Part shown: piece after piece, positions 605-42,720 of the stretch
Position numbering within the stretch: the stretch's first letter is position 1
How the letters are laid out: each line of letters begins with the position of its first letter
From: a bacterium
Lineage (GTDB): Bacteria > Zhuqueibacterota > QNDG01 > JAGLOF01
NCBI GenBank assembly: GCA_023139105.1
Contig: JAGLOF010000016.1
Coordinates: 959 to 64,958 of the forward strand
Reading direction: 5' to 3'
Length of the DNA stretch: 64,000 nucleotides
Notes under the pieces: model-generated
The model's input: only the letters and a program-made list of their open reading frames with translations
Told to the model about the DNA's origin: nothing
Database searches by the model: none
Made by a program: the position numbers and the translations under genes

Positions 605-643
605 TTCATCATTCATCATTCATCATTCATTATTCATTATTCC
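605..643. repeat. 7-bp tandem array A1 (TTCATCA x3, TTCATTA x2, partial unit)
   Basis: Counted directly. It overlaps the last codons of 630..827 and ends 16 nt from the start of 356..589. Confidence 0.95.
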
Positions 644-827
644 TAACCTGCATTGCTGCTTTGCTGACACCTTCAACAGATAAATTTTGAAATAAAGTTC
701 TCTGCCATTTGGTATAATCAAATGGTTCTTTTAATAAAAGAGATATAAATTTTTCAGCATCCACACTACCCAACTCTCTGGAAAGTGCATCTAAACCTTT
801 TATTTTAATTTCCATCTCAGTTAACAT
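630..827 (-). CDS. small helical protein, probable antitoxin-type partner of the upstream PIN-like ORF
   Basis: From the ORF track. Its ATG lies 3 nt after the stop of 831..962. KGLDALSRELGSVDAEKFISLL...DYTKW resembles small partners encoded next to PIN-like toxins (from memory, not searched). Confidence 0.45.
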   Translation of the reverse strand: MLTEMEIKIKGLDALSRELGSVDAEKFISLLLKEPFDYTKWQRTLFQNLSVEGVSKAAMQVRNNE

Positions 828-830
828 TGA

Positions 831-962
831 TCAACCCTCAATTTCATCGTTAAAGATTTTTTCTTGTATATATAACTTTGCTTCCGTTTCAATACGAATC
901 CTGATCTGTCGTTGATCATCAAAAGGTCTATTTAAACAACCATTATCCAAATAAATTCTCAT
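831..962 (-). pseudogene. 43-codon ORF matching only the N-terminus of PIN-like toxins (stub)
   Basis: Hand translation: MRIYLDNGCLNRPFDDQRQIRIRIETEAKLYIQEKIFNDEIEG*. The D-x-x-C-L-N-R-P-F-D-D-Q start is typical of a ~150-aa PIN-like family (from memory). Here the ORF ends after 43 aa. Confidence 0.35.
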
Positions 963-1022
963 GTACTCTTTCCAATAGAAGTCACTGATTATTTAATAAA
1001 TAAAGTCTGATTCAGCATAGGA

Positions 1023-1277
1023 TTAATCCTCTATTTCAGAAAACTCATCAACAGGCATCAAAATTGACTTTTTGGGTTGACGCGTTGATCCTTGCAAAGC
1101 CAAGAAATCATTCTCAATTTTTTTTAATACTTTGCTTTGAAAGTATTGCTCTCCGCAATAGTCACACTCTTCGCAAGGAACATCATTGACCAATAAAAAG
1201 TGATTATCATGTTTATAGATGTATTGCGTCTTTTTTTCACTGATATTTTTATTACCGCAAAAACTACAGACTTTCAT
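1023..1277 (-). CDS. YgiT-type zinc-finger protein (MqsA-family antitoxin-like)
   Basis: Two CxxC pairs (CSFCG ... CEECDYCGEQYF), 84 aa. It overlaps the upstream DUF4258 gene by 4 nt. Confidence 0.75.
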   Translation of the reverse strand: MKVCSFCGNKNISEKKTQYIYKHDNHFLLVNDVPCEECDYCGEQYFQSKVLKKIENDFLALQGSTRQPKKSILMPVDEFSEIED

Positions 1278-1621
1278 TGTTCACCTCTTTCATATATATT
1301 TTTAAACTTGGGAGGTGTGGGTATATAGACGGTAATAATCACGAGGCAATTATCTCTTACTCCGCATACAACATGAACTGGCACGCCGCTTTCAGTAAAA
1401 CCGCCAAGTAAACAACTTATCCCCCTGCCAGTATCTTCATAAGACTCAATAATCCTGCCGTTTACTATCGCCTCTTCAATATCTGTAATATACAGATTAT
1501 CATTTTGTCTTTCAAGGTCGCCATGCTTTGAAAACCAATAATCGTTGTCCCTGACACAATTTTTGATCCAGTCAATGTCTAAAGTCCTGTCCATAAAATC
1601 CTTCAAAAAACGACAGATCAA
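1274..1621 (-). CDS. DUF4258-family toxin-like protein
   Basis: FSKHGDLERQ...ITDIEEAIVNGRIIESYEDTGRG..PVHVVCG...LVIITVYIP matches the DUF4258 pattern, and the gene is coupled to the zinc-finger gene. An alternative start lies at 1594 (MDRTLD). Confidence 0.7.
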   Translation of the reverse strand: MICRFLKDFMDRTLDIDWIKNCVRDNDYWFSKHGDLERQNDNLYITDIEEAIVNGRIIESYEDTGRGISCLLGGFTESGVPVHVVCGVRDNCLVIITVYIPTPPKFKNIYERGEQ

Positions 1622-1873
1622 TAAAGATCAATGAAAAGGTAAGTGTGTCCATATTTTTCTATAATACTATTATTGACAAGTGAGGCAAGTGCCTTTTGAG
1701 TAGTAGAAACCGCTGAAAGGCGGAATCTGCGAGCATATTGATTCGAAAAAATATTTTGCCCGCTAATTGCCAACACTTATAAATAAATTTCTGATAAGCA
1801 GTCTAACGATCAAACAATTCAAAATGGATAATTAAACACCCCCAACACAAACATCAAGCACCTTCAAAAATTA

Positions 1874-1901
1874 TTCATCATTCATCATTCATCATTCATT
1901 A
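1874..1901. repeat. 7-bp tandem array A2 (TTCATCA x3, TTCATTA x1)
   Basis: Counted directly. It uses the same units and orientation as A1 and ends 5 nt from the hicB stop. Confidence 0.95.
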
Positions 1902-1905
1902 TAAA

Positions 1906-2118
1906 TTATGCAAAAACCAATCGCTTACCACGCGGTTCCGGAACCATATCTCCATAGGCGATTGCAGTATCAATCAATAACCGAATAGCCTCTTCAATAT
2001 TTTTCAGCGCGGTTTCATATGAATCTCCATGGGCACAGCATCCCGGCAGCTCCGGAACCTCTGCAATAAAGAGATTGTCCTCTTCACTCCAATAGATGAT
2101 AATCTCATATTTCCCCAT
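1906..2118 (-). CDS. hicB: HicB-family antitoxin
   Basis: YEIIIYWSEEDNLFIAEVPELPGCCAHGDSYETALKNIEEAI is the classic HicB/UPF0150 N-domain. No intact hicA lies upstream. Confidence 0.8.
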   Translation of the reverse strand: MGKYEIIIYWSEEDNLFIAEVPELPGCCAHGDSYETALKNIEEAIRLLIDTAIAYGDMVPEPRGKRLVFA

Positions 2119-2211
2119 AAGTTTTCATATCCCGGATGTAAAGTTGAGTAGGGAGCTGGCTCATCGCACCTTCTTTGTATGACTGTTAATGGCTTTTGAA
2201 CGTTTTACTCC

Positions 2212-2335
2212 GGTTCTTTTAATAAAAGAGATATAAATTTTTCAGCATCCACACTACCCAACTCTCTGGAAAGTGCATTTAAACCTTTTATTTTTATTTC
2301 CATCTCAGTTAACATTGATCAATCCTCAATTTCAT
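2212..2335. repeat. 124-bp duplicate of 724..847 (5' half of the 65-aa gene plus the end of the PIN-like stub)
   Basis: Hand alignment gives 121/124 identical, in the same orientation. Confidence 0.9.
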
Positions 2336-2353
2336 TAATAAATGCAACCGGAT

Positions 2354-2491
2354 TCAATATAATAATTTTTTACCAATTTCATCATAGGTGGTGCCATCTG
2401 CCATACAACCAGGTAATTCCGGCACTTCTACAACAAAAAATTTATCCTCATCACTCCAATAAATAATCATTTCATAGCGAGTATTAATCAC
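2354..2491 (-). pseudogene. HicB-like N-terminal fragment
   Basis: Hand translation: (V)INTRYEMIIYWSDEDKFFVVEVPELPGCMADGTTYDEIGKKLLY*. It parallels hicB 1906..2118 but stops after ~45 aa. Confidence 0.5.
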
Positions 2492-2495
2492 AAAT

Positions 2496-2807
2496 TTAAT
2501 GACATCTCTTAAAAATCACCTGCCCCTCATCATCAATATGCTTTCTCAGGGCCTTATTCTTTATTTCATGATAGATCAGCACATCAACACAATAGGGGAC
2601 TGGTCCCTTCTCATTCATCAGGATAGAAACAGTACGTGCATCATTAAGGGTCAATTTTTTTCCAAATAAAGCCAAATCAATATCAGAACCCTTCCTGGCA
2701 TTTCCCATAGCCCGCGACCCAAAAAGAACTACTTTTTCAACGGCCTGCTGTGCATGCATGACTGACATCATATAATTATAGCTCTTAGCTGAGATTCCAT
2801 ATTCCAT
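2496..2807 (-). CDS. minimal nucleotidyltransferase (MNT) of an MNT/HEPN pair
   Basis: Contains the GSRAMGNARKGSDIDLAL motif (GS-x-G-x-SD-x-DL). Confidence 0.8.
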   Translation of the reverse strand: MEYGISAKSYNYMMSVMHAQQAVEKVVLFGSRAMGNARKGSDIDLALFGKKLTLNDARTVSILMNEKGPVPYCVDVLIYHEIKNKALRKHIDDEGQVIFKRCH

Positions 2808-3208
2808 TATTGCATCTTCAACAATTGATTATATAGCACCTTCAGCAATGGGAAATAAGTAGTACGGATATCACTCTCAACTCGCAACATGATAGCTTCA
2901 TCGTATACATGGACAGTCAAATTTCTGTCATTGAGCGCTTCCAGCCAATTTTCACCGTCCTCAATCAAATCAATTTGAAAGGCCTGCTTGATTACGTCCC
3001 GGGGCGTTTTCACAAGAAACCCCTCTGATTCCAGGTAATCTTTCAAAGTTTTCCAACCCAATTCAAAGGTAATTTCATAGAATTGTATTAACCCGCCCCG
3101 CTCAGCCTCCGAGGGCTCTGCAATGGACATAGTTCTTTCCAATAAATGGAAAGATTTCTTAAAATTCTCAAATCGCTGTTTCCAACGGATAATCTTAAAA
3201 TTGTCCAT
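2807..3208 (-). CDS. HI0074-family nucleotidyltransferase substrate-binding (HEPN) protein
   Basis: WKQRFENFKKSF..L......E..GLIQ.FE.T.EL.WKTLKDYL fits the family. The likely start is MDNFKII at 3208 rather than the ORF-track start at 3241. Confidence 0.8.
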   Translation of the reverse strand: MDNFKIIRWKQRFENFKKSFHLLERTMSIAEPSEAERGGLIQFYEITFELGWKTLKDYLESEGFLVKTPRDVIKQAFQIDLIEDGENWLEALNDRNLTVHVYDEAIMLRVESDIRTTYFPLLKVLYNQLLKMQ

Positions 3209-3288
3209 GATAGTCCAGGAGCAAATGAAAAGTTTATACACAAAAAGTAACGATTTAGCATCTTTTACAGGACGGACTCTTTACCCTT

Positions 3289-3702
3289 CTAAACATACAA
3301 AGTATAAATAACTGAATAATATTCCTCAAGATCCTTCAGGTGTTTCTCCATAATACTCTTCAGAATATCCAGATCAATTTGCTGATAATCATGTACCGCG
3401 ATATTCCGAAACCCAACCATGCTCGACATCTTATTAAAAATCTCTTTCTCAATCAAACCATTGGTGTGCAGAACATGAAAACATTCCCTGTAAGTAGCAG
3501 GCAACTTCAAACCACGTTCACTGATTACAATATTGGCCATGTCAATTGCCGCTTGAATAGCCCGCTGAAGATTGAGAACAAAAACATCCTGTATCATTAC
3601 ATCATCAAGGCTGGACACATTGAGAGCAGTAACCTTGTGAATAGTGTTCAGACAGTTTTTTATAATAGAAATTTTGGAGAGAATCACATCTTTTTCAAGC
3701 AT
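3289..3702 (-). CDS. hepT: DUF86/HepT HEPN toxin
   Basis: Carries the R-x4-H motif FRNIAVHDYQQID. The likely start MLEKD at 3702 overlaps the end of mntA. Confidence 0.8.
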   Translation of the reverse strand: MLEKDVILSKISIIKNCLNTIHKVTALNVSSLDDVMIQDVFVLNLQRAIQAAIDMANIVISERGLKLPATYRECFHVLHTNGLIEKEIFNKMSSMVGFRNIAVHDYQQIDLDILKSIMEKHLKDLEEYYSVIYTLYV

Positions 3703-4096
3703 AAATCCGCCCATTAAGCATATGCTCTTCAATAATTTTTCGGCTTATCTTAAAATCAATGTATTGAGTGATTATACCTGCCTTATAACTGATAAAAACT
3801 ACCGGATCGTTGTTCACTAAAAGGCGACCATTGGCCAGGGCTTGCATGGAAATGATCAAATCCGCATCATTCAGGAACACAATGTCACATTCATAGGGCG
3901 ATACATCCCAAAACGAACGACGAAAGGCCATTTTATCATCCCATGAAGGGGGCTGAGAAAGATAGACGGCCAGATCAATATCGCTCTCGGCATTGAAACT
4001 ATTGCCAAGAATAGAGCCAAAGGCCAAGGCAAACACGGTCCTAGCTTCAAGAATAGGCGTGACGATTGAGAGAATATGTGATTGATTTTGAGTCAT
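3695..4096 (-). CDS. mntA: MntA-type nucleotidyltransferase antitoxin
   Basis: Contains the FGSILGNSFNAESDIDLAVY motif. The likely start is MTQNQ at 4096. Confidence 0.75.
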   Translation of the reverse strand: MTQNQSHILSIVTPILEARTVFALAFGSILGNSFNAESDIDLAVYLSQPPSWDDKMAFRRSFWDVSPYECDIVFLNDADLIISMQALANGRLLVNNDPVVFISYKAGIITQYIDFKISRKIIEEHMLNGRIYA

Positions 4097-4305
4097 TAAA
4101 ATAAACAACCTATAAATAGAACGGAAGACACTAAGAAATACAAGAACTATTTATTTATACTGGCTCTTCTCCGTGGTTCTCCGTGTGCTTAGTGGGCTAA
4201 TCTTTTAATCTCTTAGGAAATTGAAGAGCACCGCCCACGAGGACACTTAAAGACAATGAAAAATGAATATTGATTTATTGGACATATTGATTAAAATAGA
4301 AGCAT

Positions 4306-4503
4306 CTATTTCAACGTAGCTTCAATCTGTACTAAAAACTGTTCAACATCACTCAGATTCCGAATCATGGCCTGACATATTTGCTCATAATCGATTTTAT
4401 CGTAATCATATACCCATGACCGCCTTTCTCTGGGCCAGGAAATCAAATGCGCTATGACGTATAGATATCTCATATTGATGCCGCATCTCCAGGTCCGAAT
4501 CAC
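4306..4503 (-). pseudogene. HepT/DUF86 tail remnant
   Basis: RRSWVYDYDKIDYEQICQAMIRNLSDVEQFLVQI aligns with RNIAVHDYQQIDLDILKSIMEKHLKDLEEYYSVI of the intact hepT, but with His replaced by Tyr. The N-terminal ~100 aa are missing, and the rest of the ORF overlaps the MNT gene out of frame. Confidence 0.45.
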
Positions 4504-4810
4504 AGAGAATTACGCCTTCACAGACAATTGTGTCGGCCAGCACCAGGTTTTGCAGTGTATTCAGTATGATCACATCAACCTTGTTACACTTTAATGCACG
4601 CATGCAATCGGCAATTAATTGTAACCTGAATTCTAAATTGATACATACGCTATTCACGTAAAAAGCCAAATCTGTATCAGAGACCATTGATCTCTCACCG
4701 GTAACTGTGGAACCAAAACAATAGGCAAAAAGAATTTGGCCTTGATATTTTTTGAATACCGGCTGTAGTTGGATCTGAATTTTTTCGACATCAGAAGAAG
4801 GCATCAGCAT
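4406..4810 (-). CDS. MntA-like nucleotidyltransferase (partner HEPN decayed)
   Basis: Contains the FGSTVTGERSMVSDTDLAFYV motif. The likely start is at 4810 or 4804 (MLMPSSD); the longer ORF-track start adds a hydrophobic artefact. Confidence 0.7.
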   Translation of the reverse strand: MLMPSSDVEKIQIQLQPVFKKYQGQILFAYCFGSTVTGERSMVSDTDLAFYVNSVCINLEFRLQLIADCMRALKCNKVDVIILNTLQNLVLADTIVCEGVILCDSDLEMRHQYEISIRHSAFDFLAQRKAVMGI

Positions 4811-5102
4811 AAATTCTAAAGTTAGAAAATTAAAAAACATAATCAAAGGCAGAGCCCAAGCAATGCTCTGCCAACTCAGTCCCATATCCGGACCGTGCGG
4901 GAGAAAAATAATATTTGTATTGCCAAAGAGATGTGCATTACAAAGTGCTAAAAAAATAATCCACTAAATACACAGTGCTGAATTATTGGCGAATTTAAAA
5001 TCACATGATAATGGATTAGTGGGCTGTAAAAAGATAATAAATTATTCGGTAAAAATCAAGAGCGAATTCTGAATTAATTATATATAACACATCAGCCCAT
5101 TG

Positions 5103-5687
5103 TTATTTTAGATTGACAACAAGTTCATCCTTAAGATATTTCAAGCTACATTTCGGACATATAGCATCAGCACTATTTGAAAAATCCAACCTGGCACCAC
5201 ATTCACATACCCAGCCGACTATGCGTGCAGGATTACCAACTACCAGGGCGTAATCCGGCACATCTCTGATAACAGTGGAACCTGCACCAACAAAACAGTG
5301 CCTGCCAAGTGTATGTCCGCAAACAATGGTAGCATTGGCTCCAATAGAAGCACCTTCCTTGACCAGTGTGTCCAGGTAAAACTTAGAACCACGCTGTGGA
5401 TACTTACATCTGGGGTTCATAATATTTGTAAATACCATTGACGGGCCACAAAATACATAATCCTCAAGAGTGACACCTTCGTAGATTGAAACATTGTTCT
5501 GAATCTTGACATAATTACCGATGGCAACATTATTGGCAACGTTGACATTCTGACCAAGAGTGCAAACTTTACCAATTTTTGTACCGGACTGCACATGAGA
5601 AAAGTGCCAGATACCCGTGCCTTCGCCTATCTCTACATTATCATCCACATAAGCGGATTCGTGAACTCTATATTTTTTTTCACTCAT
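5103..5687 (-). CDS. hexapeptide-repeat N-acetyltransferase, WbpD/WlbB-like
   Basis: Left-handed beta-helix repeats (IG.G..I..F..V...) followed by a C-terminal GNPARIVGWVCECG tail. It sits next to the oxidoreductase and aminotransferase genes. Confidence 0.8.
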   Translation of the reverse strand: MSEKKYRVHESAYVDDNVEIGEGTGIWHFSHVQSGTKIGKVCTLGQNVNVANNVAIGNYVKIQNNVSIYEGVTLEDYVFCGPSMVFTNIMNPRCKYPQRGSKFYLDTLVKEGASIGANATIVCGHTLGRHCFVGAGSTVIRDVPDYALVVGNPARIVGWVCECGARLDFSNSADAICPKCSLKYLKDELVVNLK

Positions 5688-5710
5688 AACTAAACCTTTT
5701 ATTAAAGAAA

Positions 5711-5911: not shown

Positions 5912-5917
5912 ATGGTT

Positions 5918-6871: not shown

Positions 6872-6897
6872 AGGATTTCCTTTTAACGAAACAAAGA

Positions 6898-7001: not shown

Positions 7002-7012
7002 CTTTAATATTT

Positions 7013-8584: not shown

Positions 8585-8673
8585 AACGAGAGTATAATTA
8601 TATTATTATCTAAATCTCTTCTCTTCTTCCCTGCTTTGATCCACTCTTATCCGTATAATCCGTGTCCCATTGC
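8585..8673. repeat. direct repeat copy 2 (one extra 9-nt ATAATCCGT unit)
   Basis: Aligns with 8304..8383. Confidence 0.8.
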
Positions 8674-8705
8674 ACTCAATCTTCCCGGTAGACTTCAAGC
8701 TCTCA

Positions 8706-8779
8706 ACTTTTTACTTTTTACTTTTTACTTTTGCCCTTTTACTTCCTACTCCCTACTTCCTACTTTCTACTTTCCACTT
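8706..8779. repeat. 7-bp tandem array A3 (ACTTTTT drifting to ACTTCCT / ACTTTCT / ACTTTCC)
   Basis: The AC dinucleotide falls on a 7-nt grid at 8706, 8713, 8720, 8727, 8741, 8748, 8755, 8762, 8769 and 8776. The array ends 6 nt from the upxY stop. Confidence 0.95.
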
Positions 8780-8785
8780 GACCTT

Positions 8786-9316
8786 CTACAAAGCCTTCAC
8801 ATCACTTCTCGAGACACTAAATCGAATCCCCTGCTGCACAGCTTCGAGGCGGATAACAAGACGGGCAGCACCGGCAGTCTCCAAAAAGAGACCACGCAAT
8901 CCCATTAAAGGCCCTCTTATAATCTCAACAGGATCTCCCCGAGAAAAATAATCTACTGCCTCAACTTCAGGCACAGCTTTCAATACACGCTGTATTCTCT
9001 CTATCTCGGAATGCGGAACTTTAATTGGTTGGCCGTGTATATGTACAACGCACAGAGCACCTGTGGCCTGCACTGCCCGATATCGTTCTTTCGCATCAGA
9101 ATTAATAAAAATATATGATCTGAACAAAGGTTCATTGATCCACTTACGCCTGTCAGACCACTGCTTTAATACACGCTGTATTGGCAAATAAAATTCTATA
9201 TCTTTCTGGCGCAGCTGATCGCTGACTTTAAACTCATGACGCGGCCTGGTATAAAGCGCAAACCAGTGACGTTCATCACAGGGTAGTCCAGAAATATCTT
9301 CACGTAAAACTCTCAT
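8786..9316 (-). CDS. upxY: UpxY-family (NusG-like) transcription antiterminator
   Basis: HWFALYTRPRHEFKV.. NGN-like N-domain with a KOW-like C-terminus (GDPVEIIRGPLMGLRG), inside a polysaccharide locus. Confidence 0.8.
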   Translation of the reverse strand: MRVLREDISGLPCDERHWFALYTRPRHEFKVSDQLRQKDIEFYLPIQRVLKQWSDRRKWINEPLFRSYIFINSDAKERYRAVQATGALCVVHIHGQPIKVPHSEIERIQRVLKAVPEVEAVDYFSRGDPVEIIRGPLMGLRGLFLETAGAARLVIRLEAVQQGIRFSVSRSDVKAL

Positions 9317-9433
9317 AATGAATCCAAAAAAACAAGTTATAAGTTTAAAGGCAAAAGGAAAAAGTGAAGAGCAAACGTTTCGTGACTGAAACCCGCGTAC
9401 AAATGGAGTACAGTCTGTTACTACTATTTTTTT

Positions 9434-9534
9434 GCCTTTTGCCTTTTGCCTTTTGCTTTTGCCTTTTTACTTTCTACTTTTGCCTTTTGCTTTTCTACTT
9501 TCTACTTTTACCTTTTACCTTTTACCTTTTACTT
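9434..9534. repeat. 7-bp tandem array A4 (GCCTTTT / ACTTTCT / ACCTTTT, ~14 units)
   Basis: Counted directly. Most units are 7 nt, a few are 6 or 8 nt. It overlaps the wecB stop codon and lies ~118 nt upstream of the upxY start. Confidence 0.95.
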
Positions 9535-10638
9535 AATCTCTTCTTTAAAATACTGTTCCAACACTTTTAAAATTCTATGGCTTACCTTATCATCCCATAG
9601 TTCAGGGATCTTTCCGATCTTTTTATCACCGGCTAATATCTTTAAGGCCTCTGCATAGACTTTGTCAGGGTCAGTACCTGCCAGGACATTACTTCCCTCA
9701 GTAATTGTGACAGGACGTTCCGTATTCTCTCTCACTGTAATACACGGCACGCCAAAAAACGTAGTCTCTTCCTGTATACCACCGGAATCTGTCAATACCA
9801 GTGCAGCATCACGCTGTAGAGCCATGAACTCCAGATAACCTATGGGATCACAAAGCCTGAAACCTTCATTCTCACTGAGATTAAAAAGCTTTGCCATTTT
9901 TCGTGTCCTGGGATGTATGGGAAACAGAATTGGCAGGGTCCCGGCAAGACGATTGAGCATGGCCCAAAGGCCTTTTAGAGACTCGGGATTATCAACATTT
10001 GAGGGACGATGCAAGGTGACAAGCACATAATTGGACTTTGAGAGTTGATGCCGTGTAAGGATTGTACCAGCATCAAAACGATGCTGATGCTGCACCAGAG
10101 ACTCTATCATAAGATTGCCTGTAAAGTGCACCTTATGGGCCGCTATACCCTCCTTGGCCAGATGTTCATGAGCATCCCGACTGGTTGTAAAAAGCAGATC
10201 AGAAAGTTGGTCAGTTAAAATTCTATTTATTTCCTCAGGCATTCTGCGATCTCCACTGCGAAGCCCTGCCTCAACATGTACAAGAGGAATATTAAGTTTG
10301 GCCGCAACAAGCCCTGCGGCAATAGTGGAATTCACATCACCCACTACAAGCACCATATCAGGCTTGCGCTCATGCACTACGGTCTCAACTTCAATCATAA
10401 TTTGAGCCGTCTGCACTGCATGGCTGGCCGAACCCACTCCAAGATACACATCAGGTTCAGGCATACCCAAATCAGTGAAAAACACATCACTCATAGCAGC
10501 ATCATAGTGCTGCCCCGTATGCACCAGGAAAGCATCCAGCAGAGAGGATTCAGCACGAATCCTCTTTAGCAGAGGGGCTACCTTCATAAAATTGGGCCTT
10601 GCACCCGCAACAAGACAAATTGTTTTTTTCAAAGGCAT
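9529..10638 (-). CDS. wecB: UDP-N-acetylglucosamine 2-epimerase (non-hydrolysing), WecB/WbpI-like
   Basis: Full-length match to the family pattern (GARPNFMK..P......HTGQHYD...S..FF..L; DSGGIQEE). Confidence 0.9.
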   Translation of the reverse strand: MPLKKTICLVAGARPNFMKVAPLLKRIRAESSLLDAFLVHTGQHYDAAMSDVFFTDLGMPEPDVYLGVGSASHAVQTAQIMIEVETVVHERKPDMVLVVGDVNSTIAAGLVAAKLNIPLVHVEAGLRSGDRRMPEEINRILTDQLSDLLFTTSRDAHEHLAKEGIAAHKVHFTGNLMIESLVQHQHRFDAGTILTRHQLSKSNYVLVTLHRPSNVDNPESLKGLWAMLNRLAGTLPILFPIHPRTRKMAKLFNLSENEGFRLCDPIGYLEFMALQRDAALVLTDSGGIQEETTFFGVPCITVRENTERPVTITEGSNVLAGTDPDKVYAEALKILAGDKKIGKIPELWDDKVSHRILKVLEQYFKEEIK

Positions 10639-10681: not shown

Positions 10682-12994
10682 TCAAACCTTAATTCCCGGA
10701 ATCCTCGGCATACGGCGTTTTTTCTTATTATTCTCTCCATAATAATAATAATGATAATAATAATAATATGACCCATACATGTTTTCAATATTTACGCCAT
10801 TAACAGTGACACCAAGTAATTTAGCATTTACATTATCGAGTAATTGTTTGGCACGCAGCAGAGCATCACGATTCGTTGATCCTGATTTCATTACCAGAAC
10901 CACACCATCAAGCTTGCGGCCAAGTACAGTAGCATCGGTTACAGCAATGACCGGTGGTGTGTCAAACAGTATCATCTCATAACGTCCGCGTGCCTCTTCA
11001 ATAAAGCGGTCCATGGATTTTGAAGCAAGAAGCTCAGATGGATTAGGCGGAAGCACACCGGCTGTAATCAAATCCAGATTATCTACCTTTGTCGTGCGTA
11101 CAATCTCATCAAAAGAGGCCTTGCCTGCCAGATAATTTGTAATACCTACGCCCCGTTTCTCACTGAAAATACCATGCATTACCGGGCGTCTCAAATCACA
11201 ATCCACAATTACCGTTTTTGCCCCTGTCTGTGCCATGGTAATAGCCAGGTTGGATATAGTTGTAGATTTACCCTCTCCAGGCCCTGAACTTGTAACAACT
11301 GCTGTTTGTATGGGCTCGTCCGGACGACAGTATTGAATATTGGTCCTTAAACTGCGATAGGCCTCGGAAACAGGTGACTTGGGCGCAAAATGAGATATCA
11401 ATCTGGATTGAATCTGTTTGACATCACCATTACCATTGTCCTTTACCTGATGTGCCATTGCCTGAGAGGCTATAAAAGGAATCGAACCCAGGACAGGAAA
11501 ACCCATGTGTTCTACATCTTCAATAGTCTTCAAAGAAGTATCAAGATATTCACGGCCAAACGTCAGCCCTACACCAAGACCGAGACCAAGCATCAGGCCC
11601 AGAAGGAGATTCATCTTCTTTTTCGGCGATGTAGGGAATTCAGGTTTTTTTGCATAATCTATTATACGAACAGAACCAATCTGTCCGGCTTCTGCAATAC
11701 GGTTCTCTTCAAATTTCTCACGGAGCATAATATAGATTGTATTATTAACCCGGGCCTCTCTCTGCAGGTTGGCCAGTTGAAGGCTCTTGCCAGGCAATTG
11801 ATTAAGTTCACGTTTATACTGCTTTACAATATCATCAAGAGCGCTTGTTTTCTCTTTAAGATAATCGTTTTCAGCTTGAATAGTAAGAAGGTTCGTAAAA
11901 AGAGCATCATTGACTTTTTCTGCATTAATAGCACCGCCAGCTGCAATGAGTTTCTTCTTCTCCAGAATAATCTTCTCCTGAATACCCTCCAGTTGAGCCA
12001 TCTTCTCTTCAAGGCCGCTGCGCATGGAAGCATTGTTAAAATATCCGGCTGCTTTGAGCTGTTTCTCTTCTTTGGCAATGCCGCCGGCTAGCCGCGCTCT
12101 CTCTATTTCCAATGCACCAATCATCTCAGATGAAGCACTTGAGGCATTATTCAACATAATTTTCTGCGCCTCATCAAGCTGGACGTTCATGGCCTGAATA
12201 CGTTTCTGATTAGCCTCATAGTCAGTTTTGGCAGATTGATACAGAGATTCAAACTCAGCAGTTCGTTCAATAAGGGCCTGGGTTTCGGCAGTCAGCTCTG
12301 TAACTCCCTCAGTCTCCTTAAAGTTTTTCAGCCGCTGTTCAGACCTGTAAAGGCTGTCTTCAACGGCTACCAGTTTTTCTTCAAGAAACTTTCTAACCTT
12401 GCCCACTTCCCCGGTTGACTCTGCAATATCCAGATCCTGATAAGCCTTCATCCATGTATTGGCAATTAGTGCAGCTTCACTGGGGCTAAAGGCACTGCTG
12501 CGCAGTTCAATAACATCAGTATCACGCTGAGGAGCCACAGAAATTGAACCTTGTCTGAAATTTTTAACAAGTTCATCAAAAAGAGGGCCAGCACCTTGAG
12601 CCTCCCCGGGAAGCAATTTTTTAATCCATGTCATAATAGAAAAGCGCCTGTCAGCCTCACGATTACCAAGAATCCATAGAGAGTCGGCATATGGCGAATC
12701 CTGAAGATCACGAACCACAGCTTCCGCAAGACGCCGGCTCTTGAGTATAACTACCTGGTTGTTGATCATAGTCTCTTTTTTCATGAAGCTGGACATATCA
12801 AAAACCTGTGTCTGCACACGATCTTCTTTAATCAGGACAGTGGCTGCGGATTCATATACAGGTTGAGTTGTAAAAGTAAAATATACGGTTGCTGCCATTA
12901 CAATAATAAAAGAGATAGCTATTATCCATCGCCCACGGTATAAAACTCGCAAGTAATCACTCAAAGTGACCTGTTGCTCTCTTAGTTCGTCCAA
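10682..12994 (-). CDS. polysaccharide co-polymerase / BY-type tyrosine autokinase (Wzc/GumC-like)
   Basis: Wzz-like N-terminus with a TM segment, a long coiled-coil, a Walker A motif (SSGPGEGKST) and a C-terminal tyrosine cluster YGSYYYYYHYYYYG. Apparent TTG start with AAGGGAG upstream. Confidence 0.85.
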   Translation of the reverse strand: MDELREQQVTLSDYLRVLYRGRWIIAISFIIVMAATVYFTFTTQPVYESAATVLIKEDRVQTQVFDMSSFMKKETMINNQVVILKSRRLAEAVVRDLQDSPYADSLWILGNREADRRFSIMTWIKKLLPGEAQGAGPLFDELVKNFRQGSISVAPQRDTDVIELRSSAFSPSEAALIANTWMKAYQDLDIAESTGEVGKVRKFLEEKLVAVEDSLYRSEQRLKNFKETEGVTELTAETQALIERTAEFESLYQSAKTDYEANQKRIQAMNVQLDEAQKIMLNNASSASSEMIGALEIERARLAGGIAKEEKQLKAAGYFNNASMRSGLEEKMAQLEGIQEKIILEKKKLIAAGGAINAEKVNDALFTNLLTIQAENDYLKEKTSALDDIVKQYKRELNQLPGKSLQLANLQREARVNNTIYIMLREKFEENRIAEAGQIGSVRIIDYAKKPEFPTSPKKKMNLLLGLMLGLGLGVGLTFGREYLDTSLKTIEDVEHMGFPVLGSIPFIASQAMAHQVKDNGNGDVKQIQSRLISHFAPKSPVSEAYRSLRTNIQYCRPDEPIQTAVVTSSGPGEGKSTTISNLAITMAQTGAKTVIVDCDLRRPVMHGIFSEKRGVGITNYLAGKASFDEIVRTTKVDNLDLITAGVLPPNPSELLASKSMDRFIEEARGRYEMILFDTPPVIAVTDATVLGRKLDGVVLVMKSGSTNRDALLRAKQLLDNVNAKLLGVTVNGVNIENMYGSYYYYYHYYYYGENNKKKRRMPRIPGIKV

Positions 12995-36263: not shown

Positions 36264-36320
36264 ATTTGTAATTTGTTATTTGTTATTTGTTATTTGTTAT
36301 TTGTTATTTGTGCTTTGTGC
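36264..36320. repeat. 7-bp tandem array A5 (ATTTGTT, 8 units)
   Basis: G recurs every 7 nt from 36268 to 36317. The array is 18 nt after the pyk stop and 43 nt before the M28 ATG. Confidence 0.95.
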
Positions 36321-36362: not shown

Positions 36363-37742
36363 ATGAAACGAAATTATATGATCCCTGCTATACTAATCAT
36401 ACTCTCTTTCTGCTTTGCACCGCTTGTGTCTGCCCCTGCACCACAAGATCTACAGACAGTGATACAAGATGTAAATATTGATTCTTTGATGCTCTATGTA
36501 GCTCATTTAAGTGGTCATACTACATACATGAATAACGGTGTTGCAGATACCATACTCACGCGATATAGTTATAGTCCTGAAATAATTAAGGCCAAAGACT
36601 ACCTGGTGAATCGCCTGGAACAATGTGGATATACAGTAGATCTACATGAATTCAGTTTAACCGGCAAGGCTAATCCCTCAGAGACAGGCGAAATGTGCCA
36701 GGGCTGGCCGCCAATAAATTCTGACTACCATGAGGAAAACACGGGCGCATTATATAAAACTGCGCTTGTTTTGGACAACATTATCGCTGAAAAGATTGGC
36801 ACAACATACCCGGAGCAATACTACTATTTCATCGCACATTATGATTCTCGTGCTGAAAATCACACCAATGGGATGCTCTACGCACCCGGAGCAGATGACA
36901 ATGCCAGCGGTACGGCCACTGTACTGGAAGCTGCCAGACTATTGGCCGAGTCCGACATACTCTATTCAATAAAATTTATTCTCTTTTCAGGGGAAGAGCA
37001 AGGGCTATGGGGCAGTAAAGCATATGCCGCATGGGCCAGAGATAATAATGAAGATATCATGGCTGTAATAAATATTGACATGATCGCCTACAACATAATC
37101 AGCGATAATTTTGTTAATTGTCAACTACATGCCGGTTACTATAACTCCTCTTTTGAACTGGCCGAAAAGATGAGCCAGAACATCCATTCATGGAGTATAG
37201 ATCTAGGCTCCATAATTCTCACAGATGACGCTGCATCAGACAGGAGCGACCACGCCCCGTTTTGGGACATCGGCAAGACGGCTGTCTTTGTCTCCGAAGA
37301 CTGGCAGTGGAGCTATAATCCCAACTATCATACGGTGAGAGACGAGTACTCTACTTTAAATCCTTCATACTTCCATAAAAATGCACAACTTTGTATTGGA
37401 ACGCTCTACCAACTTGCTACATCCAGTCCTCAAACCGGTGTACGCTCTACTCTTAAGCCTTCGGCATCATTCTCCCTTGATGAACCATATCCCAATCCTT
37501 TTAATCCGCAAGTGAATATTTCCTGGACCAAGACAGGCAATTCCCGTGTTGAGATTAGAATATATGATATTTTAGGAAGGCTTATAAAAAAACTGGAAAG
37601 TGACTCCGGAGAATCAGGAATAAGCAACACAACCTGGAATGGCATAGGCGGAGATGGCGTAGATGCAGCATCCGGAATTTACTTTGTAAAAGCGACATCA
37701 GATGGTTACACACAGATCAAAAAAATATTGCTAAATCGATAA
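36363..37742 (+). CDS. secreted M28-family aminopeptidase with T9SS-type/FlgD-Ig-like C-terminal domain
   Basis: Signal peptide MKRNYMIPAILIILSFCFAPLVSA, M28 metal-ligand region (HYDS...GADDNASG...EEQGLWGS), and a C-terminus (YPNPFNP...IRIYDILGRLIK....SG.YFVK). The ATG at 36363 is preferred because the ORF-track start reads through array A5. Confidence 0.8.
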   Translation: MKRNYMIPAILIILSFCFAPLVSAPAPQDLQTVIQDVNIDSLMLYVAHLSGHTTYMNNGVADTILTRYSYSPEIIKAKDYLVNRLEQCGYTVDLHEFSLTGKANPSETGEMCQGWPPINSDYHEENTGALYKTALVLDNIIAEKIGTTYPEQYYYFIAHYDSRAENHTNGMLYAPGADDNASGTATVLEAARLLAESDILYSIKFILFSGEEQGLWGSKAYAAWARDNNEDIMAVINIDMIAYNIISDNFVNCQLHAGYYNSSFELAEKMSQNIHSWSIDLGSIILTDDAASDRSDHAPFWDIGKTAVFVSEDWQWSYNPNYHTVRDEYSTLNPSYFHKNAQLCIGTLYQLATSSPQTGVRSTLKPSASFSLDEPYPNPFNPQVNISWTKTGNSRVEIRIYDILGRLIKKLESDSGESGISNTTWNGIGGDGVDAASGIYFVKATSDGYTQIKKILLNR

Positions 37743-37888
37743 TAAATAAACGACCAAACCCCGGAGAGGCTTATTAAGTAGCTATTTCTCTCATTTTGCC
37801 CGAAAGGTATTTTAGTGCCAATAGTATTGATTCTCAAATTAAGTTCGATACATCACCATATGAGGATACTAGCTCCCCCTTTTTTTTA

Positions 37889-38099
37889 AAGGGGGTTGGG
37901 GGGATTTACTAATACTCCACTATAATTAACATAATAGAAACAAAGCATGCAGATTCAGAATCAATATGCCAAATGCAGAACGGAAGCTCTGGTCAGTTAT
38001 CCGTAAAAACAACTGTGCGGTTATCAGTTTCTCACACTAAACTTGATTGACTGGAATGTTGTTGCAAGTCTGATGATATGAAATCCCCCCAGCCCCCTT
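37889..38099. mobile_element. inverted-repeat-bounded remnant carrying a DUF559 stub
   Basis: AAGGGGGTTGGGGGGATTT (37889-37907) against the reverse complement of AAATCCCCCCAGCCCCCTT (38081-38099) matches at 18/19. Confidence 0.5.
37966..38040 (+). pseudogene. DUF559 (Vsr-like endonuclease) N-terminal stub, 24 codons
   Basis: Hand translation: MPNAERKLWSVIRKNNCAVISFSH*. The AERKLW..IR.. start is typical of DUF559, but the nuclease core is absent. Confidence 0.5.
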
Positions 38100-38251
38100 C
38101 TCAAAGGGAGCCAGATTGTTCGGAGATAATTAGATCTACACTGCTGCTTTTAAAGGTGATTGAGATTATTAATGTTGCAAAAAAGAGTTGACACTGCAGC
38201 ACCATGAAATCTCAATATTTATGCAAAGTATTTTATCGCCGAAGCAATAGC

Positions 38252-38300
38252 TTGTTATTTGGACTTTGCTTTTTGCTTTTTGCTTTTTGTTATTTGGAAT
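38252..38300. repeat. 7-bp tandem array A6 (TTGTTAT TTGGACT TTGCTTT x3 TTGTTAT TTGGAAT)
   Basis: G recurs every 7 nt from 38254 to 38296. The array ends 20 nt before the DUF58 ATG. Confidence 0.95.
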
Positions 38301-38319
38301 TTAAAAATTTGAGTCTATC

Positions 38320-39222
38320 ATGATCACTTCAGAGACAAAAAACTGGCTTAAACCCGAGACACTCAGCAAGCTGTCAGGATTAGATCTGATTGCCAGGCGT
38401 GTTGTAGAAGGATACATTACAGGCCTGCATAAAAGTCCATACCATGGATTTTCCGCTGAGTTCTCCGAGCATCACCCTTATCACCCTGGTGCACCTCTGA
38501 AAAGCATTGACTGGCGCGTACTTGGCAGAACCGAGAGATATTACATTAAATCCTATGAAGAAGAGACAAATTGCCGAGCAATGCTGATTATGGATACATC
38601 CGCTTCAATGGGATATTCTTCCGGCGCAATATCCAAGCAGTTATACGCCACATACCTTGCCGCAGCATTAGCCTTTCTACTCCTCAAACAGCGTGATGCT
38701 ACAGGTCTTGCCCTGGTTGATTCAGAGCTGCGGACACTTATCAGACCCCGATCGGTCATGAGCCATCTGAGTACACTTCTTACGCCACTTTCAAAACTGG
38801 AATCCCGGGGGAAAACCAGACTTGCGCCAGTGCTGAATAAATTGGCAGAACGTCTTAAAAGACGTACATTGATCTGTCTTTTTTCAGATTTGATGGATAG
38901 TGACAAAGAAGTAATTACTGCATTGAAAAATTTCCGTATCCGCGGGCACGAATTACTGGTCTTTCATATTCTGGATCCCATGGAGATCAATATGCAGCTC
39001 AAGCGGGATGCCATATTAATAGACATGGAGACAGACAAACGACTACCTGTCGATACACGTCACATAGCCCGAACCTATGCAGATCAGGTAGATGCATGGA
39101 CGCAAAAATTGAGACACTCCTGCCTCAATATGCAGGTGGATTATATCCGTTTAAGTACAGATACACCATATGACCAGGCCCTGTCCGCCTTTCTGGCAAA
39201 ACGTAAAAAATCCGGAGCCTAA
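38320..39222 (+). CDS. DUF58-domain protein (MoxR-associated, vWA-like)
   Basis: SPYHGFSAEFSEHHPYHPG...IDWRV..R......K.YEEE is the DUF58 signature. Confidence 0.85.
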   Translation: MITSETKNWLKPETLSKLSGLDLIARRVVEGYITGLHKSPYHGFSAEFSEHHPYHPGAPLKSIDWRVLGRTERYYIKSYEEETNCRAMLIMDTSASMGYSSGAISKQLYATYLAAALAFLLLKQRDATGLALVDSELRTLIRPRSVMSHLSTLLTPLSKLESRGKTRLAPVLNKLAERLKRRTLICLFSDLMDSDKEVITALKNFRIRGHELLVFHILDPMEINMQLKRDAILIDMETDKRLPVDTRHIARTYADQVDAWTQKLRHSCLNMQVDYIRLSTDTPYDQALSAFLAKRKKSGA

Positions 39223-39225
39223 ATA

Positions 39226-40785
39226 ATGACAATTTTCTGGATATGGATAATACTGCTGATAATCGGTTTTACAAGTTACTTCAGCATTCTCAAATTCAGG
39301 CATAAAGCCCATTCTCCTTTCCGTATCAGACTCACTATTTTCTTTCTACTTTTTGTGCTGCTACCCTCTATCCCATCGGCATTTCTAATATCTCAGCTTC
39401 TGACACAGAGTGCTGACATACTTATCATGCCGGGCATGGATGAAGCCCTGGATGCGGGCCTGGACGCCATACGACAGCAAGCGGAGACCAGAGGCAGAAT
39501 CTTCTTACAGGACCATGAAGATTCGGGGCAATGGACAGAGACTACTACAGACATTGCCAATCTACATCTGCTTGGGCATTACAGACTGCATTGCGACTCA
39601 GTCTTGACCATGAAAAATATCTGCCTCCCATCACTTGATCTATGGAAGCCGGCACCAGGTCAGATACAGGCCGCATGTTTTGGACATTACAGCCAAATTA
39701 TAGAAAAAGATCAAAAAGGACGGATAGCCGTTTTTCACTGCCTGGGCGACAGCTCTGTAACAGTGGCCATGTATGATGTAGCCTCACCGGTACTCAAGGC
39801 AAAAAATGAGATGACACGAGCTCTGCGTTTTTATGCATCGCTTTCACTTATCAAGGAATCCATGCTGGAGCAGGAAGTGATCTGGGCACTGGCTGTAGCT
39901 GCTATTTTTATATTGGCTATGACTGCTGCCGGTGCCGCTTCAACTATATCGCGTCATATCAGCCGGCCTGTACAGGATCTGGTTGCAGGCATGAACAAAG
40001 TGGCAGAGGGTGATCTATCCATACGTGTACATACACCTGCAAAAGATGAGTTCAGAAGACTGGTAGATGCCTTCAACCAGATGACGGCTGATCTTGCTGA
40101 GGGCCGCATCAAACTTATAAAAGCAGAAAAACTGGCTGCATGGCAGGGCGTAGCCCGCCAAATCTCTCATGAAATAAAGAATAGCCTTACACCTATTGCC
40201 ATCTCAATCAGGCGGCTCAGAGGACACTTTGGTACAGCGGAAATGCCGCTACGTGTAGCAGACAGCCTTCAGATTATTGAAGAAGAACTTAAATCTATGG
40301 AACTGATGGCCGGAGAGTTCAGTGAATTTGCACGCATGCCCAAGGCCAGTAAAACAGAAATAGAGATCAATATAATTATACAAAAAACCTGTGACTTATT
40401 ACGTTCCGGACTGGACGGACGAAGATTAGATCTTAATCTCGACCCTAACCTTCCCAACATAAAAGCCGACAGCGAACAGATCAAAAGAGTATTAAACAAT
40501 CTTATCAAAAATGCAATAGAAGCCACAAAATCAGGTGACATCATTACAATCAGCAGCACACAATCGATGTTGGCTGATAAAAATATACTTATTGAGATTA
40601 CAGACACAGGCATCGGCATGAACAAAGAGACTCTAATGAGAATCTTTGAACCCTACTTTACAAATAAAAAGCGTGGCACAGGGCTGGGTATGGCAATAGT
40701 ACAGCAGATCATTCAGCAGCATAATGGTCATATTGATCTTAGCTCTCAACCTGGTAGCGGCACTCAATTTCAAATACACCTCTAG
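39226..40785 (+). CDS. sensor histidine kinase (TM-HAMP-HisKA-HATPase), no cognate regulator adjacent
   Basis: HAMP region (RPVQDLVAGMNKVAEGDL), H-box SHEIKNSLTPI, N-box LNNLIKNAIEA and G-box GTGLGMAIV. Confidence 0.85.
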   Translation: MTIFWIWIILLIIGFTSYFSILKFRHKAHSPFRIRLTIFFLLFVLLPSIPSAFLISQLLTQSADILIMPGMDEALDAGLDAIRQQAETRGRIFLQDHEDSGQWTETTTDIANLHLLGHYRLHCDSVLTMKNICLPSLDLWKPAPGQIQAACFGHYSQIIEKDQKGRIAVFHCLGDSSVTVAMYDVASPVLKAKNEMTRALRFYASLSLIKESMLEQEVIWALAVAAIFILAMTAAGAASTISRHISRPVQDLVAGMNKVAEGDLSIRVHTPAKDEFRRLVDAFNQMTADLAEGRIKLIKAEKLAAWQGVARQISHEIKNSLTPIAISIRRLRGHFGTAEMPLRVADSLQIIEEELKSMELMAGEFSEFARMPKASKTEIEINIIIQKTCDLLRSGLDGRRLDLNLDPNLPNIKADSEQIKRVLNNLIKNAIEATKSGDIITISSTQSMLADKNILIEITDTGIGMNKETLMRIFEPYFTNKKRGTGLGMAIVQQIIQQHNGHIDLSSQPGSGTQFQIHL

Positions 40786-40787
40786 CA

Positions 40788-40811
40788 GCCTTAAGTCAGA
40801 CAGACTGCTAG
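40788..40811. repeat. 24-nt exact inverted copy of the left terminus of the 51671..51839 element
   Basis: GCCTTAAGTCAGACAGACTGCTAG is the reverse complement of 51671-51694. It is embedded in the hairpin CTAGCAG-N16-CTGCTAG, which overlaps the kinase stop codon (TAG at 40783-40785). Confidence 0.85.
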
Positions 40812-40833
40812 CCAGTACGCTTCTATAAATATC

Positions 40834-40862
40834 TTGACAATACCTATGTTTTTATCTATACT
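40834..40862 (+). promoter_or_regulatory. candidate sigma70-type promoter of the que operon
   Basis: TTGACA (40834-40839), a 17-nt spacer, then TATACT (40857-40862), 40 nt upstream of the queD start. Confidence 0.45.
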
Positions 40863-40902
40863 TAGATTGCTAAAATTAAAATGAAAAAAAGGAGTACATC
40901 TC

Positions 40903-41271
40903 TTGTTTCGCGTCTTTATTGATACACATTTTGCAGCAGCCCATCAGCTTCACGGCTATGACGGCGAATGCCGCGCCCTGCACGGCCACACCTGGAAAGT
41001 CCGTGTGGAAATTGAAACTGAACACCAGGATGAAATCGGTATCAGCTTTGACTTCAAGACATTAAAAGCACATGTAAATTCAATCATCGAAAAGCTGGAT
41101 CACCATAACGTCAACGAAGTCCCTCCATTCGACAAGATAAATCCAACCGCCGAAAATCTGGCCAAATACATATACAACGAAATCGCACGCGTTTTACCGG
41201 ATTATGCAAAACTCTCACAAACTGTGGTCTGGGAATCTGATCATTACGCAGTTTCATATTTTGAAAAATGA
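40903..41271 (+). CDS. queD: 6-carboxy-5,6,7,8-tetrahydropterin synthase
   Basis: FAAAHQL.GY.G.C..LHGHTW.V motif. TTG start with AGGAG upstream. Confidence 0.9.
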   Translation: MFRVFIDTHFAAAHQLHGYDGECRALHGHTWKVRVEIETEHQDEIGISFDFKTLKAHVNSIIEKLDHHNVNEVPPFDKINPTAENLAKYIYNEIARVLPDYAKLSQTVVWESDHYAVSYFEK

Positions 41272-41280
41272 TGAGGTTTT

Positions 41281-41919
41281 TTGCTTAAAGTCAACGAAAT
41301 TTTCTACTCAATCCAGGGTGAATCATCGTATGCCGGACACCCCTGCATCTTCATCCGGTTGACAGGCTGCAATATCCGCTGTAATTATTGTGATACTACA
41401 TATGCCTATGAAAAGGGCAAGCTCTTTTCAATAGAATTAATTCTTGAACACCTGGAACACTATAATTGCGGATTAGTGGAAATTACAGGCGGTGAACCGC
41501 TTATGCAATCGGAAACTTCCGATCTGGCCAGAACTCTGATAGCCTCCGGTTATACGGTTTTAGTTGAATCAAACGGTACGCTGGACATAGGTCTTCTTCC
41601 GCCCGGAACACATGTAATTATGGATATCAAATCTCCCGGCAGCGGCGTTTCGGAAATGATGAACTGGCAGAATATGGACAGGCTCACCGATGACGATGAA
41701 GTAAAATTAGTCTTATCTGACAGGGCTGACTATGAATGGGCACGCTCTATAATATATAAATATGCCCTGCACAAACGTTCTAATACCCTACTCTCTGTAG
41801 TAGCAGGCAGGCTTAATCCTGAAGATCTGGCAGCATGGATACTTGAAGATGAACTTGAAGTTCGACTTCAGTTGCAGATGCATAAAATTCTTTGGCCAAA
41901 TGATGAAAAAGGACGATAA
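41281..41919 (+). CDS. queE: 7-carboxy-7-deazaguanine synthase (radical SAM)
   Basis: IFYSIQGES...G.P..FIRL.GCN..C.YCDT motif. Confidence 0.9.
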
Positions 41920-42601
41920 ACAACGCGCCGTCGTGCTGTTGAGCGGCGGCCTGGACTCTGCTACCGTGCTGGCCATGGCCAGAGCCCGGGGGGTAGATTG
42001 CTATGCCCTCAGCTTTCGGTACGGTCAGCGCCACAGCCATGAACTGGCAGCTGCTAAAGTTGTAGCCGAGACCATGGGCGTTAAACGCCACCTCATCCTG
42101 GACCTCGATTTCCGGGCCATGGGTGGCTCAGCACTGACAGCGGATATCGATGTACCCAAGGACAGAGACACAGCCCGGATGGAAGATGAGATCCCCATCA
42201 CCTATGTGCCGGCCCGGAACATTGTGTTCTTGTCGATTGCCCTTGGCTGGGCCGAGACATTGCACGCACGACAGATCCACATCGGCGTCAACGCCATGGA
42301 CTACTCCGGTTACCCGGATTGCCGTCCGGATTTCATAGACGCCTTTCAGGCCATGGCCAACCAGGGTACCAAGGCGGGAGTGGAGGGCCATCCATTTACC
42401 ATTCACACGCCGCTGATGCAGATGACCAAGGCCCGAATCATTGCCGAGGGGATACGCCTGGGCGTGGATTATGCCATGACGCACAGTTGCTATGATCCGG
42501 CCGTCGATGGCCTGGCTTGCGGCTGTTGCGACAGTTGCCTGATCCGGAAAAAAGGCTTTGCCGAAGCCGGCGTGCCTGATCCGACAAAATACATGAAGTG
42601 A
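41900..42601 (+). CDS. queC: 7-cyano-7-deazaguanine synthase
   Basis: [13 protein letters not shown]-loop and a C-terminal zinc cluster C..C..C..R. The ATG at 41900 is preferred. Confidence 0.95.
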
Positions 42602-42648
42602 AGACCTGTTTAAGTGAATATCGAACAAGAATTAACGATTTTCAAATT

Positions 42649-42720
42649 CACTTTTTAACTTTTAACTTTTAACTTTTAACTTTTAACTTTTAACTTTTAA
42701 CTTTTTACTTTTTACTTATT
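42649..42720. repeat. 7-bp tandem array A7 (AACTTTT, ~10 units)
   Basis: C recurs every 7 nt from 42659 to 42715. The array lies between the queC stop (42601) and the queF ATG (42737). Confidence 0.95.

Follow-up and report, generated by a model that had tools for sequence, protein, structure and literature searches.

A 64,000-nucleotide (nt) stretch of DNA from a bacterium of the Zhuqueibacterota (contig JAGLOF010000016.1 of GenBank assembly GCA_023139105.1, positions 959 to 64,958; hereafter the window) carries seven tandem arrays, A1 to A7, built on a 7-nt step. These arrays are heptanucleotide simple-sequence repeats, members of a class already known and the bacterial equivalent of microsatellites, and they are probably hypermutable spacer repeats generated by slippage. 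Across phyla, such arrays follow an orientation rule in which the array whose sense strand is purine-rich lies at or just past a stop codon. In the window A1-A4 fit this rule, and A5-A7 stand instead in 5' leader or promoter-proximal DNA. A sequence-only reading of the window had argued from the constant period, the position at gene boundaries and the shared polarity of the arrays that slippage could not explain them; the first two are now seen to be features of the wider class to which the arrays belong, and the third has lost much of its force.

The arrays themselves are real. Tandem Repeats Finder called a period-7 array at each of the seven places (Table 1), with 3.6-14.6 copies and 81-100% match, and a lag-autocorrelation scan of the window recovered arrays at lag 7 and its multiple 14 only, with lags 4-6, 8-13 and 15 empty and no array in any of 10 dinucleotide-preserving shuffles. 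The period is common to all seven and the unit sequence varies between them, just as had been described, with pyrimidines making up 62-88% of the + strand across the set. The 7-nt grids quoted in the earlier reading are correct base by base: G recurs at this step from 36268 to 36317 in A5 and from 38254 to 38296 in A6, C from 42659 to 42715 in A7, and AC from 8706 to 8776 in A3 with the single exception of CC at 8734, and the occasional 6- and 8-nt units of A4 are confirmed. The coding strand changes at 33.2 kb, with genes on the minus strand before this point and on the plus strand beyond it, and A1-A4 are therefore purine-rich in the sense direction (TGATGAA, GTAGGAA/GTAAAAA, GGTAAAA/GGCAAAA).

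Table 1. Heptamer arrays of the window and a neighbouring segment of opposite polarity (aa, amino acids; T9SS, type IX secretion system)
Feature	Position	Tandem Repeats Finder call	Strand	Units	Setting
A1	605-643	605-642	sense -	(TAATGAA)2(TGATGAA)3 on sense strand	Covers final 14 nt and stop codon of a 65-aa minus-strand gene (630-827); occupies the 40-nt spacer ahead of the next gene (356-589)
A2	1874-1901	1873-1899	sense -	Identical to those of A1, flanks unlike those of A1	Starts 4 nt past the stop of a minus-strand gene for a HicB-like antitoxin (1906-2118)
A3	8706-8779	8706-8779	sense -	GTAGGAA/GTAGAAA, then drift to (GTAAAAA)3 on sense strand	Starts 6 nt past the stop of a UpxY-family NusG-like gene (8786-9316, minus; NCBI name "UpxY family transcription antiterminator", Pfam NusG); next gene 556 nt away
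A4	9430-9534	9430-9530	sense -	About 15 units GGTAAAA/GTAGAAA/GGCAAAA on sense strand; a few of 6 or 8 nt	First unit contains the TAA stop of a UDP-GlcNAc 2-epimerase gene (9529-10638, minus); array ends 113 nt upstream of the UpxY-like start
A5	36264-36320	36264-36318	+	(ATTTGTT)n	Lies 18 nt past the stop of pyruvate kinase and 42 nt ahead of the ATG of an M28 peptidase with a T9SS sorting tail
A6	38252-38300	38265-38296	+	(TTGCTTT)3, with a 16-nt direct repeat on either side at a spacing of 35 nt (5 units)	Stops 19 nt short of the DUF58 ATG, closing a 577-nt spacer without counterpart in relatives
A7	42649-42720	42653-42717	+	(TTTTAAC)7(TTTTTAC)2	47 nt past the QueC stop; borders on a GAGG ribosome-binding site and leaves 16 nt to the QueF ATG
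Opposite-polarity segment	9347-9371		+	AAAGGCA AAAGGAA AAAGTGA (degenerate, 3 units)	60 nt from A4

All seven arrays fall within the 12.2% of the window that is intergenic, of which they make up 5.4%, and their overlap with coding sequence is limited to the last codons and stop at A1 and A4. The gap between an array and the gene end closest to it ranges from -14 to 19 nt across the set. When arrays were placed at random in the array-free spacers of the window, a gap of 19 nt or less arose with a probability of 0.20 per array, or about 1e-5 for seven, so that the preference for gene boundaries claimed in the earlier reading is genuine and not a trivial by-product of short spacers. Six of the seven lie closer to the right-hand gene, which is the gene 3' of the T-rich strand. 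The positions divide in two: A1-A4 stand -14 to 6 nt after stops with purines in the sense strand, and A5-A7 precede starts by 16-42 nt and have their purines on the antisense strand. The suspicion that the F/L/Y-rich open reading frames (ORFs) called across the arrays are artefacts is also upheld, because those on the + strand across A3 and A4 (8636-8908, 8670-8951 and 9364-9570, rich in F and L) overlap minus-strand genes with Pfam support or fall in spacers; at these two arrays the + strand is free of stops in every frame and the minus strand has stops in all three. [quoted passage not shown] Rfam 15 gave no match at gathering score in the window or in the loci of two relatives, and no terminator-like site adjoins any array of the window.

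The geometry of A1-A4 recurs far beyond this lineage. A scan of contigs, taken from one genome per species, for the pattern (TTTTNNC)3TTTT returned at least 119 loci (810 kb), and the counts that follow were made on the loci listed, which come from Bacteroidota, Cyanobacteria, Acidobacteriota, Chloroflexota, Nitrospirota, Proteobacteria and others. These loci hold 205 arrays at lag 7, compared with 0-11 at each of lags 5, 6 and 8-11, so that one period combined with varying units is the usual state. Distances were taken from each array to facing stop codons of ORFs called with a minimum length of 100 aa, and a minimum of 150 aa gave the same result. Of the 72 arrays with a purine-rich sense strand, 32 are no more than 10 nt and 43 no more than 30 nt from a stop (median 16 nt), compared with 1 of 56 within 10 nt (median 116 nt) for those with a pyrimidine-rich sense strand. 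The rule holds for arrays that match the search seed (25/49 purine-rich within 15 nt of a stop, median 13 nt; 2/35 pyrimidine-rich, median 101 nt; Fisher's test of orientation against stop proximity, p = 1e-5) and for those that do not (10/23, median 18 nt; 0/21, median 119 nt; p = 6e-4). Start codons are not hugged in this way (median distances of 87-175 nt), and 72 arrays lie closer to the gene 3' of their pyrimidine strand, with 32 the other way round. The purine-rich sense strand at or just past the stop is thereby shown to be a rule that holds across phyla, and the boundary position that had been taken as a sign against slippage follows this gene-relative rule, which had already been reported for G-rich heptamers (Rehm 2015). 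At several of these loci (L025, L026, L029, L038 and L094) post-stop purine-sense arrays often have inverted copies of their units within the next tens of nt, making long A-rich/U-rich hairpins that typically lie between convergent genes.

Simple causes of the rule were tried and set aside. Stop triplets in all three frames of the unit occur in 16 of 35 stop-hugging arrays and in 49 of 109 others, and so do not explain the position. Nor do the arrays look like expanded A-tracts of intrinsic terminators, as just 7 of 42 downstream 70-nt segments fold with z < -2. Polar growth, or treadmilling toward the gene, is not borne out either, as unit purity does not differ between the two array halves (25 against 38, p = 0.13). 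Selection against pyrimidine-rich arrays as loading sites for Rho can hardly be the general cause, since cyanobacterial loci obey the rule and cyanobacteria are not known to have Rho.

The precedents named by the earlier reading, namely the short tandemly repeated repetitive (STRR) sequences of cyanobacteria and the hmw heptamers of Haemophilus influenzae, are of the right kind. STRR units such as CCCCAGT, TTGGTCA and CAACAGT are, like those of the window, tandem heptamers in non-coding DNA, although the host here is not a cyanobacterium and not one tandem dimer of these three units occurs on either strand of the window. Tandem TAACTGA, GGGAATC, GGGGATT, hmw and Nostoc units are likewise absent from the window. 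The broader class is that of long simple-sequence repeats with units of 5-11 nt, described by Mrazek, Guo and Shah (2007) as relayed in PMC4679880 and PMC4692102: according to these accounts, heptanucleotides outnumber the other long simple-sequence repeats of many genomes, their units vary, their hosts are free-living bacteria, and polymerase slippage was proposed as their origin, favoured by a length of about 7 nt of DNA in contact with the polymerase. As that class is portrayed there, the window arrays share with it head-to-tail variable 7-nt units, longer than chance and intergenic, and differ in belonging to a new uncultured lineage and in having T/A-rich and not GC-rich units. They are near-perfect, non-coding and differ in presence between related genomes, as heptanucleotide long simple-sequence repeats do. 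The contention that slippage cannot explain a conserved period is therefore not supported, as a shared 7-nt step with varying units has been described for long repeats in many bacteria and is seen again in the loci listed above.

Individual systems within the class resemble the window to different degrees. The G-rich heptamers GGGAATC and GGGGAYT of Xanthomonas and Nostoc, if placed on the coding strand, lie 0-50 nt from a stop; those of the non-coding strand immediately precede ORFs, and array length varies extensively among related strains (Rehm 2015, PMC4692102). All seven window arrays share this geometry, and six of them are, like the G-rich repeats, nearer to the ORF 5' of the purine strand; the window units, however, have no G runs and hence no G-quadruplex potential, and the repeats in Xanthomonas are kept between the same genes in related species, whereas the window arrays are missing from relatives. 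The TAACTGA repeats of marine Beggiatoaceae, cyanobacteria and some Bacteroidetes have in common with those of the window that they are intergenic heptamers near gene boundaries, occur at contig ends and have repeat-free counterparts in relatives, in which the spacers are shorter (MacGregor 2015, PMC4679880). They differ in that most are forward-oriented and stand a few nt ahead of a start codon. The same study reported contigs ending in repeats, 7-nt insertions and deletions between Cyanothece strains, and a co-orientation of repeat sets between stop codons in a small sample mapped in Microcystis. In Nostoc PCC 7120, (TTTTGAA)3-4 stands upstream of recF and some twenty other genes, and deletion of the heptamers altered the regulation of recO and recF (bioRxiv 10.1101/2022.06.06.494920). 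These repeats, with GAC(C/T)AAT, are comparable to those of the window in being T-rich, within 100 nt of start codons or promoters, and spread over many genes; the unit differs, and of the two only the Nostoc repeats have a regulatory effect measured by deletion.

Comparison with relatives suggests that the arrays are recent. A search of 5.8 billion proteins with the pyruvate kinase of the window gave no relative between 75% and 100% identity, and on the contigs of the nearest relatives (72-75% amino-acid identity) gene order is kept over 20 kb. In the comparison of orthologous spacers that the earlier reading had proposed, the arrays are absent from the syntenic spacers at this distance: the spacers between pyruvate kinase and M28 and between QueC and QueF are free of repeats, the M28 and DUF58 genes, separated by a 577-nt spacer (37743-38319) in the window, are adjacent or overlapping, and no period-7 array occurs in the 21 kb inspected per relative locus. 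The syntenic loci of the relatives (L005-L008) have a GC content of 56%, compared with about 43% in the window and 33-38% in its spacers, and with the repeat-free relatives this indicates that the lineage has drifted toward AT and that its spacers were remodelled. From these sequence comparisons, the arrays appear to be young and lineage-specific.

Two of the remodelled spacers hold further features. That between M28 and DUF58 contains a MITE-like segment with 19-nt inverted repeats at 37889-37907 and 38081-38099 (95% complementary and rich in G/C runs) that enclose a short ORF fragment which by eye resembles a DUF559-type endonuclease (MPNAERKLWSVIRKNN...). The QueC-QueF spacer of the relatives (L005 17191-17272, L006 17232-17313) is 82 nt long and well conserved between the two, including ACCGTGAAACCC.AGGAGGCACCGGGTATGCTGG; it has no Rfam match and may be a conserved leader element upstream of queF. 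In its place the window has unrelated sequence and A7.

The earlier reading had asked whether the arrays would be seen in independent assemblies, and they are, in identical form, in a second metagenome-assembled genome (MAG; GCA_030635125.1), where the region lies on two contigs. The organism is present in one sample only, SRR13892605, and the Logan k=31 contigs of that run hold A3 and A4 intact and end exactly within the perfect arrays A5, A6 and A7. Such breaks mean that the exact unit number of A5-A7 rests on the assemblers. That the arrays themselves are assembly artefacts of low-complexity reads is nevertheless a negligible prospect, given two different MAG assemblies with identical arrays, Logan contigs in which A3 and A4 are whole and the array ends of A5-A7 are joined to unique flanks, and hundreds of other genomes, isolates included, with arrays of the same kind. 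One Logan contig (L001 1-31, corresponding to window 42674-42704) opens with TTTTTAC where both MAG assemblies have TTTTAAC, which hints at within-sample heterogeneity in A7 or at an unresolved array interior.

Polarity is the part of the earlier argument that has fared least evenly. All seven arrays are indeed T/C-rich on the + strand, on both sides of the switch in transcription at 33.2 kb, and background strand skew is ruled out as the reason by a (T-A)/(T+A) of -0.02 on the + strand of the window's intergenic DNA once the arrays are removed. The significance, however, is only nominal (two-sided p = 1/64, or 1/32 if A1 and A2, which have the same unit order and different flanks, are linked), and the segment at 9347-9371 has the opposite polarity; neither the 9 kb past the end of the window nor the 1 kb ahead of it adds an array. 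A replication-polar feature, in which the T-rich strand is fixed to one replication strand through leading- or lagging-specific slippage or a strand-specific binding lattice, would agree with this constancy either side of the switch, with the lack of background skew, which makes the polarity specific to the arrays, and with a GC skew that is negative or zero through the window and compatible with one replication direction. We consider it highly improbable all the same. In addition to the modest p value and the opposite segment, neighbouring arrays within one 8-kb locus of the other genomes have the same polarity in 26 cases and different polarity in 32, so that polarity along a chromosome arm, irrespective of transcription, is not a general property; G-rich heptamers have no leading or lagging preference (Rehm 2015, PMC4692102); and the gene-relative rule already accounts for A1-A4. 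The case for a polarity-based function beyond slippage, built on seven arrays only, is weakened accordingly by the opposite segment and by the lack of local co-polarity elsewhere.

The arrays could instead be contingency loci, in which unit number is selected for tuning the expression of flanking genes and so gives rise to phase variation. The clearest candidates would be A3 and A4, which bracket the UpxY-family antiterminator of a capsule or polysaccharide locus, together with A5-A7 in the leaders of the secreted peptidase, DUF58 and queF. A4 stands upstream of the UpxY-like gene, with A3 directly after it, and the segment at 9347-9371, which lies 23-47 nt upstream of the ATG, is 94% complementary to A4 units over 17-18 nt, so that the array and its inverted three-unit partner could form a hairpin in the 5' untranslated region (UTR). 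This recalls hmw1A of H. influenzae, where the 5' UTR includes the transcribed (ATCTTTC)n repeat as one arm of a hairpin that RNase III cuts, and where change in heptamer copy number requires transcription (PMC12721329). In hmw1A and hmw2A (PMC12721329, PMC8262952) a pyrimidine-rich heptamer likewise sits between promoter and start within a repeat-armed hairpin; most window arrays, by contrast, have no complementary arm, and copy-number variation, an inverse relation to expression and RNase III processing are features of hmw. The predicted A4 hairpin is no more stable than shuffles (z = -1.4), the copy number of A3 and A4 agrees between both MAG assemblies and the Logan contig, with the TTTTTAC k-mer of A7 the one hint of heterogeneity, the flanking genes are partly housekeeping (queF, and a toxin-antitoxin module downstream), and arrays across the listed genomes favour the 3' ends of genes and not promoters. 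Selection for phase variation is thus an unlikely account of the arrays as a whole, within which A4 and its inverted partner before the UpxY-like gene are, on sequence analysis, the most plausible candidate for a regulatory and possibly phase-variable element.

Strand specificity across phyla is also what one would expect of a feature read at the level of the transcript, and the arrays might be cis-acting RNA elements, either a 7-nt lattice for a single-strand binder such as ribosomal protein S1 or a cold-shock protein, or a 3'-UTR element of stability or termination that begins at the stop codon. S1, Csp or CsrA have been suggested as binders of TAACTGA repeats (MacGregor 2015, PMC4679880), and the regulatory change in recO and recF upon heptamer deletion in Nostoc points the same way. 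We rate such a role as rather doubtful, because unit sequences differ among arrays, the transcript would be purine-rich at A1-A4 but U-rich at A5-A7, relatives with the same genes do without the arrays, and there is neither an Rfam match nor a consistent adjoining terminator.

Slippage in spacers remains the probable explanation. The arrays would have arisen recently, in a lineage drifting toward AT, through slipped-strand mispairing in non-coding spacers, 7 nt being the preferred unit length of long repeats in many free-living bacteria; as 7 is not a multiple of 3, they would survive only outside ORFs. Purine-sense arrays start at or just past the stop, in RNA that is transcribed but untranslated, and A5-A7 are pushed up against a ribosome-binding site or promoter. 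Such arrays may expand more readily where the transcribed RNA is purine-rich and bare of ribosomes, a form of transcription-dependent instability that could underlie the orientation rule. The outcome would be unstructured, hypermutable A/U-rich spacers that alter the length of UTRs and spacers and may thereby affect expression, with no need for a sequence-specific function. Several points weigh against this explanation. Neutral slippage alone predicts neither the proximity to gene ends (~1e-5) nor the common polarity of seven arrays, the simple causes of the orientation rule have failed (stop triplets, adjoining terminators, polar unit purity and background skew), and both a variable unit number and an R-loop or transcription step are presumed. 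It is conceivable, if improbable, that the arrays instead make visible a single strand-specific process, conserved among phyla and directed at DNA that is transcribed but not translated, with a chromosome-wide polarity added here. Were this true, the process might be an R-loop-driven expansion of purine RNA that starts where ribosomes leave at the stop, or a conserved factor that reads a 7-nt lattice, and the added polarity would confine the T-rich side of every array to one strand irrespective of gene direction.

Other repeats of the window stand apart from the heptamers. A perfect (ATA)10 at 10739-10768, which is (TAT)n when read along the coding strand, specifies the YYYYYHYYYY tail of a Wzz/GNVR/P-loop protein (10682-12994, minus). 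This tail, which we take to be the C-terminal tyrosine cluster of a bacterial tyrosine kinase (BY-kinase), is here written as a slippage-prone repeat. A direct duplication of 131 nt (724-854 and 2212-2342, 95% identical) comprises the 5' part of a 65-aa gene and that of its truncated 36-aa paralogue, and lies within an island of small genes of toxin-antitoxin type (HicB-like, DUF4258, RelB-like, Polbeta/HepT-like/NTase_sub_bind and a 23S rRNA intervening-sequence (IVS) protein). A1 and A2, which have their units in common, occupy non-equivalent positions relative to the two copies of this duplication.

Why 7 nt should be the favoured step in so many free-living bacteria, and what these repeats do there, is under-studied. 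The orientation rule extends across phyla what was known only for G-rich heptamers in three strains, and so provides a testable handle on mechanism. In practical terms, heptamer arrays break short-read assemblies, yield false F/L-rich ORFs and mark fast-evolving spacers, among them the leader of a capsule-locus antiterminator gene whose expression could be phase-variable.

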